Positions 13,035 through 16,380 of a stretch of 25,289 nt of DNA are shown in pieces. The notes under the pieces are model-generated. The model worked only from the letters and a program-made list of their open reading frames with translations. It was not told the origin of the DNA and did no database searches. This stretch comes from a virus (taxonomy: Duplodnaviria; Heunggongvirae; Uroviricota; Caudoviricetes), in IMG/VR virus record IMGVR_UViG_2698536647_000005. One strand, given 5' to 3'. Position 1 is the stretch's first letter, and each line of letters begins with the position of its first letter. Made by a program: the position numbers and the translations under genes.

Positions 13035-13127
13035 ATGAATCTGGACAATGTTTTAAAGTTTTTTGCGCCTAAAGGCATGCACATCTCAGATACCAGCAGA
13101 GCGACAGCAATCTTCCTGCCTCAATGA
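13035..13127 (+). pseudogene. 30-codon ORF whose product resembles the N-terminus of the downstream Q-like protein; likely a recombination remnant
   Basis: My translation MNLDNVLKFFAPKGMHISDTS compared with MKLEASLKHFSPQGMHISDDV at 13307 (same strand, about 270 bp apart). Confidence 0.3.
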
Positions 13128-13303
13128 TTCGCTTGTTGAAGCAACGAGAGGGCGAAGGGTGGATCGGTGACATCGGAGCTAATTTCGACTCTCGCTCTCA
13201 CCAGTTCCTGGAAGGCGAGAAAAAACCATTTAACTACCTGGTCGTTAAGCCGCAAAGCGAGTTTGATCTCGAGTGGGAAGCCAGCAACGTAACGAGGGTT
13301 TGA
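13124..13303 (+). CDS. Small hypothetical nin-region protein, 59 aa (below the track's length cutoff)
   Basis: ATG at 13124 overlaps the stop of the preceding short ORF (ATGA). My translation: MIRLLKQREGEGWIGDIGANFDSRSHQFLEGEKKPFNYLVVKPQSEFDLEWEASNVTRV. Confidence 0.35.
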   Translation: MIRLLKQREGEGWIGDIGANFDSRSHQFLEGEKKPFNYLVVKPQSEFDLEWEASNVTRV

Positions 13304-13306
13304 GAT

Positions 13307-14143
13307 ATGAAACTTGAAGCTTCACTAAAACACTTTAGCCCTCAGGGTATGCACATCAGCGACGACGTGAAAGGAACCTCTCCGGACCGCCTTACAGGAA
13401 CAGATGTAATGGCGGCAATTGGCACCACCAGCAGCCGTGCGCGCTTCGGACTGGCGGCGTTCTTCGGTAAAGCGGGAATCAGCAAAACGGATGAACAGCT
13501 CGCAGTTCAGGCGCTGGCGCGATATGCGATGGATGTCGCACCGAAGAATGTTCGCAAAGCAGCTGGTGGGCAGTTCGGATGGTGCATGCAGATGTTGGCA
13601 CAATTTGCCTTTGCTGATTATTCACGTTCGGCGGCTACAAGCGTGACGTGTCACAGCTGCAGTGGTACCGGACGAACAACCCGCGAACAGATTACCCGCA
13701 AGGTTTCGTACCCATGGGGTAAAGCTCCATACTGGGCCTGCCGCTCTCGTGCTGTTCGACCGTCTGACTGGGAGCAGTGGATGGAGGTAACAGAGGTTGT
13801 ACCGGCGGTCTGTGATGCTTGCGAAGGCAAGGGAACGATCAGCGCCCGTTGTCGTTGCGGCGGTAAAGGCGAGGTTCTAGACCGCAAGGCCACAAGCGAG
13901 CGCGGCGCGCCGGTGTTTAAAACCTGCGAGCGCTGCAGCGGAAATGGATTTTCTGCGGTGCCGTCTACCGCAGCCTATAAAGTGATACTGAAGCGCGTTC
14001 CGGATCTGCACGTCAGAACATGGACTCGCAACTGGAAACCGTTTCTTGAGGCGCTGGTAAGCATTTGTCAGCAGGAGGAGGGAAACGCCGCAAGAGAATT
14101 TCAATCTGCAACCAGTTTAGGCGAAGAAGGTGACGAAATTTAG
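13307..14143 (+). CDS. Putative late-gene antiterminator (Q-like), Cys-rich with DnaJ-type CxxCxGxG repeats, 278 aa
   Basis: Last gene before a promoter-plus-terminator unit and the lysis cassette, which is the Q position. Three exact CxxCxGxG repeats (CHSCSGTG, CDACEGKG, CERCSGNG) and one variant (CRCGGKG). The functional call rests on position only. Confidence 0.45.
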   Translation: MKLEASLKHFSPQGMHISDDVKGTSPDRLTGTDVMAAIGTTSSRARFGLAAFFGKAGISKTDEQLAVQALARYAMDVAPKNVRKAAGGQFGWCMQMLAQFAFADYSRSAATSVTCHSCSGTGRTTREQITRKVSYPWGKAPYWACRSRAVRPSDWEQWMEVTEVVPAVCDACEGKGTISARCRCGGKGEVLDRKATSERGAPVFKTCERCSGNGFSAVPSTAAYKVILKRVPDLHVRTWTRNWKPFLEALVSICQQEEGNAAREFQSATSLGEEGDEI

Positions 14144-14162
14144 CATTATTACGACATAAGGC

Positions 14163-14192
14163 TTGATTTTGTCCGAAGTTGTCGTGTATGCT
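14163..14192 (+). promoter_or_regulatory. Putative late promoter (pR'-like)
   Basis: TTGATT (14163-14168), 18-nt spacer, TATGCT (14187-14192), about 40 nt upstream of a strong terminator. Would give a transcript of roughly 50-60 nt, analogous to lambda 6S RNA. Confidence 0.35.
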
Positions 14193-14232
14193 TCTAATCA
14201 TGCGGAGTAACGCCTGAAAGATTTAAACAATA

Positions 14233-14254
14233 AGCCCCTTGCGGGGCTTTTTTA
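14233..14254 (+). terminator. Intrinsic terminator (tR'-like), possibly bidirectional
   Basis: Stem AGCCCC, loop TTGC, stem GGGGCT, then TTTTTT. Abuts the stop codon of the convergent minus-strand gene 14252-15202. Confidence 0.7.
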
Positions 14255-15202
14255 TGGCAGCGAGTTAACGAAAGAACTGAAAAGGGCCTTATCTTTATTG
14301 CTAATTGATTTTTTCAAATGTAGTTGATGATTTAAAGGTTTAAAGTTTTCCTTTGTGAGATATATACATGCTTTCTCAAAACGATCCTGAAGGAATTGAA
14401 ATCTTTCATTCAGCCTGGAAACTTTTAATCCTAATGACATGACCTTCTTCTCAGGAATATCGTCAGGATTGCAATTATTGAGTTCTTCCAGCACAAGGCG
14501 AATATCTCTTTCGAAGATTAGCGCTATGTTATAATCGTTGAGGAGGCATTCAGGATTACGAACAATGCCAATTACTTCGTCGATGAATTGTGGTTTTACA
14601 TTATCCTCAGCATTTTCATCTTCGTTATCGGAAGGTTTTTGAGACATAACATTCGACAACTGCATTTCTTCCTTGGTTTTCCTTCTGGGAAGTAAAACTT
14701 TTCCATCTCCTAAAGCAGCCATACGTTTCAAAGCTTGACTCCCGGCTCGGCCAACTACTTTAGAATCTCTTAAATCTAAAATTTTATGTGCGACCCATTC
14801 TAATGATGGTTCACTGGCTTCGATTTTGGCTTTTGCTTGGTAATGGAGAAAAATATTTTTCTTGGCTTCCTTGAGGGCTGTTAGATATCTGTGGAAATTT
14901 GCCTTTTTCTCGAGGTCAGTGGCTAGGTTTTCAAATGCTATACCGAAGACTTTTGTACCGCAAACGTGACCCAGGTTCGTCTCCAGACCATCCTCAGTAA
15001 GAACAAGAAACCCTTTTTTATGGCCTGTTCGACAGCTCGACTTGCCACACGGGATTTCTTCCGGGAGGTCATCATAATAACCAAAAACATCGGATAATTG
15101 TTGATCGGTCAGTTCCAGCCTGGAATGATAGCTTTCCCGAGCTTGAATTTCTGTCCAGTCATTAATGCGATCAAAGCTATTGCCGTTTTTAATAAAAATC
15201 AT
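14252..15202 (-). CDS. Orphan hypothetical protein, 316 aa, low GC, antisense to the late operon (cargo gene)
   Basis: Uninterrupted 951-nt ORF with an AAGGGA ribosome-binding site. Visibly more AT-rich than flanking phage DNA (my estimate; not computed). Opposite orientation to all neighbours. Contains a C-x4-C ... H ... H-x-C cluster but no motif I recognise. Confidence 0.6.
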   Translation of the reverse strand: MIFIKNGNSFDRINDWTEIQARESYHSRLELTDQQLSDVFGYYDDLPEEIPCGKSSCRTGHKKGFLVLTEDGLETNLGHVCGTKVFGIAFENLATDLEKKANFHRYLTALKEAKKNIFLHYQAKAKIEASEPSLEWVAHKILDLRDSKVVGRAGSQALKRMAALGDGKVLLPRRKTKEEMQLSNVMSQKPSDNEDENAEDNVKPQFIDEVIGIVRNPECLLNDYNIALIFERDIRLVLEELNNCNPDDIPEKKVMSLGLKVSRLNERFQFLQDRFEKACIYLTKENFKPLNHQLHLKKSISNKDKALFSSFVNSLP

Positions 15203-15317
15203 ATCTTCCCTTGCTCTGGTTAGATTGAAAGCACTGCCGCTTGATATTTAACCATTTCCCTGATTGTTTTTCATCATAAAACCATATTATTGCAAGGGTA
15301 GTTTTACCTATGTATCT

Positions 15318-15394
15318 TCTTGCTCCCGGCCCTTTAGCTCAGTTGGTTAGAGCGTGCGACTCATAATCGCCCGGTCGCTGGTTCAAGTCCAGCA
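15318..15394 (+). tRNA. tRNA with CAU anticodon, ileX-like (tRNA-Ile2; tRNA-Met not excluded)
   Basis: Cloverleaf folded by hand: acceptor stem GGCCCTT/AAGGGCC, D-arm GCTC..GAGC, anticodon loop CTCATAA, T-arm GCTGG TTCAAGT CCAGC, 3' CCA. Close to E. coli ileX as recalled from memory. Confidence 0.8.
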
Positions 15395-15396
15395 AG

Positions 15397-15470
15397 GGCC
15401 ACCAGACCGCCACTAGCTCATCGGGAAGAGCGGCAACCCAGGTGTTGTGGTACGGGGTTCGAGGCTCCGG
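15397..15470 (+). tRNA. tRNA-like element with a non-canonical anticodon loop (possible pseudo-tRNA)
   Basis: Perfect acceptor stem CCGCCAC/GTGGCGG with discriminator and CCA, a D-arm GCTC-ATCGGGAA-GAGC and a T-arm CGGGG-TTCGAGG-CTCCG. The anticodon arm folds only as stem GCAAC/GTTGT with a 6-nt loop CCAGGT, or as a 4-bp stem with an 8-nt loop; no 7-nt loop is possible. Confidence 0.5.
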
Positions 15471-15482
15471 TGGCGGACCACT

Positions 15483-15558
<76 letters not shown>

Positions 15559-15561
15559 TAT

Positions 15562-15636
<75 letters not shown>

Positions 15637-15831: not shown

Positions 15832-15856
15832 AGCCTCGCTTCGGCGAGGTTTTTTC
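15832..15856 (+). terminator. Intrinsic terminator
   Basis: Stem AGCCTCGC, loop TTCG, stem GCGAGGT, then TTTTTT. Confidence 0.65.
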
Positions 15857-16073
15857 ATTTGTAAGACAACCATCAGGAAGCAATGGCTAATCTCATTGAC
15901 TGCAGGAATAAGTTCGGCGTAATTTATTTCTGTGGTGAATCCTTTCTAAGCGAAAGGGCGTTCCAGCCAACTGCTATCTGCAGGTATGCGCGCGACTTTG
16001 CTGGCTGGAGTAGAGTCACCGGGAGGCACCCGGCACCATGACAACTACAATACAAGTTTCAAATTCCTTGAGA

Positions 16074-16101
16074 GCCTGCCATTAAACGCAGGCCTTTTTT
16101 T
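16074..16101 (+). terminator. Intrinsic terminator
   Basis: Stem GCCTGC, loop CATTAAAC, stem GCAGGC, then CTTTTTTT. Confidence 0.6.
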
Positions 16102-16240
16102 ATGGTTTTGCAAACTGCTGCTACGCTTTGAGTTGTGGGAAGTAACTGAATGCCCGGTGGTTCTCCTGGACCGATAGTGAATCAGCCGATACAGCTTCAC
16201 CTCTGAGCATAAGTCTTACTCACACCTACCTTACAAATAG

Positions 16241-16269
16241 TCAACTCATTAGCCCGCTATCAAAAGCGG
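16241..16269 (+). terminator. Intrinsic terminator immediately upstream of the lysis cassette
   Basis: Stem AGCCCGCT, loop ATCAAA, stem AGCGGGCT, then TTTTTTT. Confidence 0.7.
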
Positions 16270-16380
16270 GCTTTTTTTATTTCAGGCTCCGGGAACCATC
16301 ATCGACATGACTGCTTGTTAAATCGTCCCGAGGGCCTGACCCCTTACACACAGCTCCCGCCATTACGCGAGGAGATAGAG

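Follow-up and report, generated by a model that had tools for sequence, protein, structure and literature searches.

The DNA analysed here is a stretch of 25,289 nucleotides (nt) from the Caudoviricetes record IMGVR_UViG_2698536647_000005. This whole stretch, hereafter the window, is a lambdoid prophage. Its gene order is integrase, excisionase, exonuclease, rdgC, cI-type repressor, cro, N6-methyltransferase, RusA, Ant, DUF968 and the antiterminator gene Q. After Q come an antisense gene, transfer RNAs (tRNAs), a lysis cassette (holin, lysozyme, Rz-like), and then the terminase and portal head genes. The antisense gene is the subject of this report. It lies at 14252-15202 on the minus strand, starts with ATG, and encodes a protein of 316 amino acids (aa) and 36.2 kDa that is a member of PHROG 7003. 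A first-pass annotation, made from the sequence alone, had described a 316-aa open reading frame (ORF) at this position, between Q and the tRNA cluster and antisense to the late operon, and we found both the ORF and its placement to be as described. The gene is antisense to both of its neighbors: Q (13307-14143, annotated 'antitermination protein'), which is its tail-to-tail partner, and the tRNA cluster (15328-15636) are on the plus strand. The cluster, as identified with ARAGORN, Rfam and PGAP, consists of a tRNA with a CAT anticodon, a degenerate tRNA-like gene, a Thr-TGT tRNA and a Gly-TCC tRNA. As set out below, the gene belongs to a large family without annotated function, and its genomic contexts make a role in the immunity of lysogens a serious possibility.

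The composition of the gene differs clearly from that of its surroundings. Its GC content is 0.391 (GC3, at third codon positions, 0.360), against 0.511 for the remaining window and 0.554, 0.547 and 0.541 for Q, DUF968 and the lysozyme gene. It is the lowest-GC 951-nt stretch of the 25-kb window (window mean 0.505, sd 0.041), and the earlier visual estimate of about 40% against about 52% was therefore accurate. All enterobacterial homologs compared have a GC content of 0.355-0.399, and thus the composition belongs to the family and not to the window copy alone. In pairwise Nei-Gojobori comparisons with four homologs of 89-99% protein identity, the ratio of nonsynonymous to synonymous substitution rates (dN/dS) was 0.071-0.081 at dS values of 0.05-0.68. 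Therefore, the ORF is a functional gene under purifying selection and more than a chance ORF.

The first-pass annotation had called the gene an orphan. This label is wrong, since the superfamily comprises at least 568 representative clusters and the exact protein is recorded on 522 contigs from Escherichia coli, Enterobacter and Salmonella, in every source as a 'hypothetical protein'. It is identical to WP_016240226.1, which carries the same name. The gene is also conserved across related prophages, so the lack of conservation that had been named as a possible objection does not apply. Among 5,426 complete E. coli genomes, the window allele was found in five, where it is annotated as an identical coding sequence, and a 62% allele in 22. 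One of the five is E. coli MS 115-1 (NZ_CP146665.1, 1179549-1182019), a strain from which CBASS and CapH/CapP defense genes are widely taken. Therefore, lysogens carrying the window allele may already exist in laboratories.

Signals for transcription and translation can be read at both ends of the gene. A GC-rich hairpin (14232-14249; dG -13.5 kcal/mol) followed by a T-run that extends to 14255 was found on both strands in the terminator scan. For rightward transcripts that start downstream of Q, it is a putative tR'-like terminator, and read on the minus strand it is the putative end of the antisense gene. The gene's stop codon (14252-14254) lies inside this T-run, in agreement with the earlier statement that it abuts a tR'-like terminator. 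About 40 nt upstream of the hairpin, a putative late promoter pR' was read from the sequence on the plus strand at 14163-14192 (TTGATT at 14163-14168, an 18-nt spacer, and TATGCT at 14187-14192). This candidate lies below the threshold of the consensus scan. Its spacing from the hairpin resembles that of the annotated pR', Q-binding element and terminator of phi80.

At the 5' end, a Shine-Dalgarno sequence, AAGGGA, is located on the minus strand at 15207-15212, 4-6 nt before the ATG. We aligned the 150 nt before the gene in eight homologs of 57-100% protein identity. The AAGG core was invariant in all eight upstream regions, and the gene thus has a ribosome-binding site of its own, as had been claimed. 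The same alignment contained a block, ATGAAA-17 nt-TGnTTAAAT, that is kept down to the 62% homologs despite the divergence of the surrounding intergenic DNA. In the window, it corresponds to a putative promoter on the minus strand at 15246-15274, with a -35-like ATGAAA at 15269-15274, a 17-nt spacer and an extended -10 element, TGgTTAAAT, at 15246-15254. This block resembles a sigma-70 promoter of the extended -10 class whose -35 element is weak, and the predicted 5' untranslated region would be about 37 nt long. The first-pass annotation had placed a promoter of the gene's own somewhere in 15203-15317. The consensus scan gave no match there, but the conserved extended -10 element can be read in that interval. 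Since the candidate falls below the scan threshold, we infer this promoter from its conservation.

Horizontal acquisition of the ORF as cargo is supported by comparison with the Q-tRNA(Ile/Thr/Gly) junction of E. coli D53-1 (L003). This related junction is 348 bp long and has no gene, whereas the corresponding junction of the window is 1125 bp. The gene has the features of a moron, namely deviant GC content, a hairpin terminator, a conserved putative promoter and absence from the related L003 junction. We also examined its linkage to Q in Enterobacterales, in 24 IMG/VR loci and three others, 26 of which were assessable because their downstream flank could be read. In 24 of the 26, the antisense gene was tail-to-tail with the same Q type, and this arrangement persisted at protein identities of 62% for the gene and 78% for Q. 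Therefore, Q, tR' and the antisense gene travel together as a module, in contrast to the random filling of a variable slot. The idea of acquired cargo thus stands, but the gene is not cargo that floats freely in that position. DNA homology with the Shiga toxin (Stx) phage phi467 spans the region from Q to position 14251, the end of the terminator, and then stops. In the E. coli relatives L001 and L081, BLAST mapping revealed an extra segment of about 2.9 kb between DUF968 and Q that is not in the window. It carries a second antiterminator (Q or DUF1133 type) and a holin-holin-GH19 lysis cassette, and these relatives have tandem late modules. The window is without this segment and therefore has a single Q gene.

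The site of this extra segment corresponds to a mosaic breakpoint at about 13108 in the window. Just upstream of Q, the ORF at 13124-13303 on the plus strand (59 aa) is apparently the C-terminal remnant of a gene of about 630 aa, which several IMG/VR loci carry at full length and which is annotated as an 'AAA family ATPase' (pseudogene) in E. coli AW1.7. E. coli AW1.7 (L002, 6953-7528) also contains a 5'-truncated family copy of 191 aa, WP_225858608.1. Its homology to the window stops at about 14759, inside the gene, and beyond this point tRNA-Asn and tRNA-Arg replace the tRNA cluster of the window. Therefore, a recombination breakpoint lies within the coding sequence.

Homologs of the gene were also found in Stx phages. 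In E. coli STEC308, the order is Q, antisense homolog, tRNA-Arg and stxA2 (e/i/l/k subtype). In phage phi467 (L007, 2278-4875), a frameshifted homolog lies between Q and stxA, and its two ORFs of 133 and 174 aa match positions 1-126 and 120-274 of the family profile. The IMG/VR locus L033 has a 319-aa ORF of StxA size, unconfirmed as StxA, in the corresponding position, and an O157 strain has a homolog between Q and tRNA-Arg genes. The first-pass annotation had noted that the gene occupies the place of toxin cargo in Stx phages. It is indeed in the same interval as stx, but in STEC308 and phi467 it adjoins the toxin genes instead of replacing them. Judging from this gene order, every pR'-driven toxin transcript in these two would have to cross a convergent gene of about 1 kb. 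The STEC308 locus (L041, 1960-5945), which like phi467 has the 62% homolog between Q and stx2, also contains an IS2 element that splits stxA2 from stxB2.

The 316-aa protein matched PHROG 7003 over its full length (E = 3.5e-118; residues 1-315 against positions 1-308 of 309 in the profile). PHROG 7003 has no functional annotation, and membership thus provides a name without a function. We searched the family profile exhaustively with HMMER against 1.84 billion representative proteins. The thresholds E <= 1e-3 and E <= 1e-10 gave 568 and 304 proteins, respectively, almost all of which were about 300 aa long and aligned end to end. The statement that the protein has no assignable motif was borne out, as neither Pfam (E <= 1) nor NCBIfam matched it, and none of 5027 PADLOC hidden Markov models did so at E <= 1. 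In 69 diverse relatives, no consistent Pfam or PADLOC match was found; PADLOC gave three scattered single-member matches with E > 1e-3. No ArdA, ArdB/KlcA or ArdC model of Pfam or NCBIfam matched the family, and such genes occur as neighbors on one plasmid only. In the PDB, the protein itself, the full family profile and the profile of the N-terminal domain had chance-level sequence matches only (E > 0.1). The family identifiers searched for were not mentioned in the searchable literature. The family may have been described earlier under another name, for example in the newest DefenseFinder models or in the Brenes & Laub prophage screen.

An AlphaFold model built with 69 family sequences had a predicted local distance difference test score of 95.8 and a predicted template modeling score of 0.85. 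It contains a beta-rich N-terminal domain (residues 1-87), long helices (88-165), a pair of beta-hairpins around an acidic loop (166-225) and a C-terminal helical bundle (226-314), and the fold is predicted to be novel. The N-terminal domain, encoded at 14942-15202 on the minus strand, is the best-conserved part of the superfamily. Conservation peaks at residues 41-80 and is lowest at 101-160 and 241-280, a pattern that suggests a constant N-terminal module joined to a faster-evolving helical body. Residues Y43, C52, C57, G64, G78, C81 and G82 are invariant across the superfamily, and H61 (98%), N76 (95%), F86 (98%) and N286 (98%) are nearly so among 69 diverse members. The first-pass annotation had pointed out a C-x4-C...H...H-x-C cluster. 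This cluster, C52-x4-C57-x3-H61...H79-x-C81, is present and invariant in 16 close homologs. Among the 69 diverse members, C52, C57 and C81 are conserved at 100%, but H79 is variable, and some family members have C-x3-C where others have C-x4-C.

In the model, a Cys knuckle is followed by a His, a beta-hairpin and a helix starting at C81. This order of elements is that of a putative treble-clef zinc site, for which C52, C57, H61 and C81 would probably be the ligands. Their codons lie within 14960-15049 on the minus strand (C52, 15047-15049; C57, 15032-15034; H61, 15020-15022; C81, 14960-14962), and that of the variable H79 is at 14966-14968 on the same strand. Treble-clef and His-Me (HNH-type) fingers have these elements in common: a Cys-x3-4-Cys knuckle, a His, a beta-hairpin with a near-invariant Asn (here N76), and a helix at a Cys (here C81). 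However, 33 isolated N-terminal domains gave no HNH or zinc-finger Pfam match even at E <= 10, and the domain profile had no PDB match. Because C52, C57, H61 and C81, the only conserved residues of ligand type, are probably all needed for zinc, no catalytic His is left. We rejected an HNH/His-Me nuclease on these grounds: there is no spare conserved catalytic His, H79 is variable, and no HNH profile matches. A HEPN protein (Rx4-6H) was also rejected, since position 58 is variable.

Two helical segments of the protein are basic, with isoelectric points (pI) of 9.7 and 9.0. No helix-turn-helix (HTH) or other known DNA-binding domain was detected in the protein, its relatives or the N-terminal domains. 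The 316-aa protein and its 69 relatives also lack signal peptides and membrane segments, and no domain of a toxin, adhesin or enzyme was found in the protein. Its maximal 19-aa Kyte-Doolittle hydropathy is 0.82, its N-terminus is hydrophilic, and none of the 69 relatives exceeds the threshold of about 1.6. By its sequence, the family protein would be cytoplasmic. Membrane proteins of the superinfection-exclusion type (SieA/SieB, Cor, Imm) were ruled out by the lack of a transmembrane segment or lipoprotein signal.

Members of the family occur in Beta- and Gammaproteobacteria of soil and water. Each of the seven phage records with a member is of a temperate phage, and a tblastn search of 50,697 phage records found none in virulent phages. 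In the window, in vB_EcoS-611R1 and in Ewingella, the gene occupies the interval from Q to the lysis genes in antisense orientation. Klebsiella phage ST13-OXA48phi12.2, a Serratia prophage and the Pseudomonas Hollowayvirus phages Atpa001 and D14S have it in the gap that separates the early-left operon from cI, where it runs antisense to that operon. At six Pseudomonas loci, the gene is directly downstream of a cI-type repressor (HTH plus S24), on the same strand, as are the rexAB genes of lambda. At L050 and L055 (from Cupriavidus and another bacterium, a gammaproteobacterium), it is directly downstream of an HTH and M78 peptidase pair. A P4-like satellite (L012), which encodes an integrase, AlpA and a Toprim/AAA_25 primase, carries the gene beside a TacAT toxin-antitoxin pair. 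Family members are also found on 20 plasmids, where the neighbors include Hok/Gef, an antirestriction protein, a zincin-like protein, the TraI relaxase and DUF4942.

Some members are located in chromosomal defense islands. At L051, a complete Gabija system (GajA, E = 8e-236; GajB, E = 5e-241) adjoins the family gene, with a type IIG restriction-modification (RM) enzyme nearby. The gene adjoins PDC-S06 and a DUF262/SspE-like protein at L062, is near a type III restriction enzyme at L070 and a type IIG RM enzyme at L042, and is followed by an LA2681-like HEPN protein at L055. Among 134 neighbors, the commonest Pfam families were phage integrase and M78 peptidase (four each) and S24 peptidase, AAA_21 and HTH_3 (three each), with MmeI, UvrD and protein kinase at two each. 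The PADLOC matches among the same 134 neighbors (E <= 1e-10) included CapP-like (4), mad3 (3), RmrA (3), type IIG (2), GajB (2), PD-T4-6 (2) and mad6 (2). When the neighbors of 47 loci were clustered, no cluster was common to the family beyond close relatives. Recurrent downstream ORFs of about 300 aa were mutually unrelated (DUF58, DUF4942, HEPN_LA2681 and others of unknown type). Q is linked to the gene in 24 of 26 enterobacterial loci, but no partner recurs across the 47 family-wide loci, and from this gene content the family protein would act alone, without a conserved partner.

In Pseudomonas agarici LMG 2112 (L073-L076), at least four near-identical copies of the family gene are on separate contigs of about 9.5 kb and share their flanks, which include a cI-like repressor and a DUF1654 protein among others. 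This suggests a multi-copy prophage or a repeat element that breaks the assembly. The members at L054, L056 and L063, from metagenome-assembled genomes labeled Micrococcales, Eremiobacterota and Acidobacteria, are 51-53% identical to proteobacterial N-terminal domains, and they could result from contig mis-binning or from real transfer across phyla.

Taken together, the gene may encode a soluble, stand-alone cytoplasmic immunity, exclusion or abortive-infection protein that guards the lysogen against other phages. The lysogen would produce it until induction, when antisense late transcription would shut the gene off. We regard this as the most likely explanation, slightly short of probable, because the phage copies are antisense to lytic operons or co-oriented with repressors, the phage carriers are exclusively temperate, and some members have defense-island neighbors. 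Of the functions proposed in the first-pass annotation (virulence, exclusion or defense), the context points to lysogen-expressed defense or exclusion, but virulence is unsupported, since a signal peptide, a membrane segment and a toxin domain are all lacking. The prophage would transcribe the gene leftward from the weak extended -10 promoter at 15246-15274, and transcription would end at the hairpin at 14232-14249. Upon induction, Q-modified RNA polymerase from pR' would read through this hairpin and then cross all 951 nt of the gene in antisense before reaching the tRNAs and lysis genes. Polymerase collision and antisense RNA would switch the gene off, and the prophage's own late development would be spared. 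The N-terminal Cys2-His-Cys domain may be a structural zinc module with a constant partner or effector surface, and the faster-evolving helical C-terminal two-thirds may determine target specificity. As no catalytic motif is recognizable, action by binding is likelier than enzymatic attack, and binding, rather than known catalysis, would be the probable mode of action. We infer each of these elements, that is, lysogen expression, silencing by late transcription, zinc binding, defense function and the division of labor between two domains, from sequence, model and context. A broader claim, which we put forward more tentatively, is that this is a widespread undescribed family (568 or more clusters at 50% identity, found among Beta- and Gammaproteobacteria on temperate phages, satellites and plasmids and in defense islands) of single-protein anti-phage factors with a new zinc-binding, non-catalytic fold, gated by head-on Q-dependent antisense transcription, and that in some Stx2 phages it forms a 1-kb antisense element crossed by the toxin transcripts.

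Several points weigh against a lysogen-expressed immunity protein. The association with defense genes is anecdotal, as the neighbor counts are raw and without a background rate, and many chromosomal neighbors are housekeeping genes. None of the 5027 models of PADLOC-DB 2.0.0 matches the protein or its 69 relatives consistently, and the DefensePredictor supplements do not list four E. coli accessions of the family. The gene's own promoter candidate is below the threshold of a consensus scan that gave no match. In E. coli, H-NS typically silences DNA of such low GC content (39%), and therefore expression in the lysogen could be low. The sequence revealed no motif of a catalytic or effector kind, which makes the proposed mechanism conjectural. 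The tight link to one Q type could reflect a role in the phage's own late regulation, and the plasmid neighbors (antirestriction, ArdC-like, Hok/Gef and DUF4942) suit an anti-defense or establishment role.

Such an anti-defense or establishment factor would neutralize host immunity or help a newly arrived mobile element to establish. We consider it unlikely, although the 20 plasmid-borne members argue for it. On a Vibrio vulnificus plasmid, the gene is within a few kb of genes for an antirestriction protein, a zincin-like (ArdC-type) protein, Hok/Gef, ParA and a topoisomerase, and on a Pseudomonas putida megaplasmid it adjoins DUF4942 and a Y-family polymerase. Anti-defense genes are known to abound in leading regions of plasmids (PMC11541004), and a non-enzymatic binding protein would be typical of anti-defense proteins. 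However, the phage copies are antisense to early or late lytic operons or co-oriented with cI, so the timing would be wrong for the infection stage. There are no virulent-phage carriers among the 50,697 phage records, some copies are inside chromosomal defense islands, a Burkholderia plasmid copy lies beyond the 3' end of traI and has no obvious leading position, and Pfam revealed no similarity to ArdA, ArdB, ArdC or KlcA. It is likewise doubtful that the protein regulates phage development, as a zinc protein that binds nucleic acid or polymerase, tunes induction, Q-dependent late transcription or the choice between lysis and lysogeny, and would for this reason stay beside Q. In L003, this Q type is present but the gene is not, the truncated AW1.7 copy and the frameshifted phi467 copy persist in apparently intact late regions, and the copies on plasmids, satellites and non-phage islands have no Q or cI to regulate. 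The Cys2-His-Cys domain and the basic helical segments (pI 9.7 and 9.0) would suit a regulator, but no HTH or known DNA-binding domain was detected. Position also favors regulation: in 24 of the 26 assessable enterobacterial loci, the gene is tail-to-tail with a single Q type, a link kept at protein identities as low as 62% for the gene and 78% for Q, and other members are beside cI, Cro or ImmA/ImmR-type regulators.

Position and anatomy are also compatible with a conversion or fitness moron that is unrelated to phages, acting in stress tolerance, metabolism or virulence modulation, in the slot that stx occupies. The low GC content, own promoter and terminator, and opposite orientation are classical for a moron, the Q-to-lysis interval is that of stx, with relatives directly beside stx2, and the exact protein is spread over E. 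coli, Enterobacter and Salmonella. Nevertheless, we consider this quite unlikely, given a protein with no signal peptide, membrane segment, toxin, adhesin or enzyme domain and a family whose range in soil and water Beta- and Gammaproteobacteria speaks against host-specific virulence. The recurrent neighbors are repressors, integrases and defense genes, not metabolic or virulence loci. It seems very unlikely that the gene is a selfish module of the addiction or toxin type that stabilizes its carrier element and has the antisense late transcript or a neighboring small RNA as its antidote. A protein of 316 aa with an elaborate multi-helical predicted fold is unlike known small toxins, no conserved antitoxin gene was found, truncated and frameshifted copies are tolerated, and no PADLOC or Pfam toxin model matches. 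Still, a single gene moves among phages, plasmids and satellites, toxin-antitoxin neighbors are frequent (TacAT at L012, a HigBA-type pair in phi644-2, Hok/Gef on the Vibrio plasmid), and the full antisense overlap with an abundant transcript recalls the logic of type I toxin-antitoxin systems.

Other features of the window were also noted. The first tRNA of the cluster (CAT anticodon) is Met according to ARAGORN and Ile according to PGAP. Between it and tRNA-Thr, ARAGORN called a tRNA-like gene with a two-base anticodon loop (15407-15480, plus strand), which scores below the Rfam tRNA gathering score. PGAP leaves it unannotated where E. coli copies are identical, and it probably represents a degenerate tRNA. 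Between the tRNAs and the holin gene is the small RNA STnc100 (15899-16105, plus strand), a full-length Rfam match with 53.1 bits against a gathering score of 47, and terminator-like hairpins were found near it at 15832-15851, 16074-16093 and 16251-16272. A second low-GC patch (below 0.44) extends over about 5900-6600, between rdgC and the cI-type repressor. The ORF at 6168-6551 on the minus strand (127 aa) is the counterpart of a 'ClpX C4-type zinc finger protein' in the near-identical prophage of E. coli FAM21845, and it is another moron-like gene, at the immunity region.

If the gene does encode an immunity protein, it would bring a new protein fold and probably a new mechanism to bacterial immunity. 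Its source class, single genes embedded in prophage regulatory regions, is poorly handled by island-based computational screens. The ORF at 14252-15202 is a well-defined candidate that is cheap to test, and no surprise in itself. With a large family, one 951-bp gene and a confident structural model, it can be tested easily and mutagenesis can be guided. In the Stx phages that carry a relative between Q and stx2, the gene, its promoter and convergent transcription could alter the expression of the toxin once the prophage is induced, and this is medically relevant regardless of the role of the protein. Even if the role is anti-defense or regulatory instead, the family is uncharacterized, strongly selected and has a novel predicted fold.

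A low-GC moron in antisense orientation in a prophage, with a candidate role in defense, is a familiar object. What is new is an unannotated family without a structural relative. The Q-to-lysis cargo of Stx and other lambdoid phages (stxAB, tRNAs, morons) occupies the same interval and has the same moron features. However, stx and the tRNAs are co-oriented with pR' transcription and depend on it, whereas the antisense gene would be opposed by it, and its protein, unlike stx-type cargo, has no toxin or secretion features. Other parallels are BstA (Owen et al. 2021, PMC8585504) and lambda RexAB, as distant family members are downstream of a same-strand cI-type repressor or in the immunity region. 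This adjacency to the repressor holds for the Pseudomonas, Klebsiella and Serratia relatives, while the window copy adjoins Q. BstA is reportedly a single protein of about 300 aa with an N-terminal KilA-N-like domain, but neither KilA-N nor any other Pfam domain was found in the 316-aa protein or its 69 relatives, and PADLOC gave no match. RexAB of lambda is a two-gene system with a membrane component, whereas the protein studied here is stand-alone and has no membrane segment.

The arrangement in the window resembles that of the tail assembly inhibition (Tai) system TaiEcA/AtiEcA of phi80 (He et al. 2024, PMC11364771). The phi80 gene taiEcA is divergent in the Q-dependent late operon (a 'noncontiguous operon') and is expressed in the lysogen, and the level of its protein drops upon expression of Q (PMC11364771). 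The ORF at 14252-15202 is likewise a single prophage gene antisense in a Q-controlled late unit, and like Tai systems its family occurs in P4-like satellites. We rejected homology to TaiEcA (phi80 orf63), as BLASTP gave E = 2.3 and hhalign a probability of 0.08%, and phi80 was not among the tblastn matches. TaiEcA has about 204 aa and is encoded far downstream of the lysis genes near cos, whereas the antisense gene directly follows tR', and Tai pairs with an Ati counter-defense gene, whereas no Ati-like candidate is conserved beside this family. By analogy, the proposed antisense-silencing logic would have an experimental precedent in the unrelated taiEcA. If the proposal is true, the gene would represent a second, unrelated 'noncontiguous operon' route to prophage self-immunity, and this arrangement is perhaps a general design principle.

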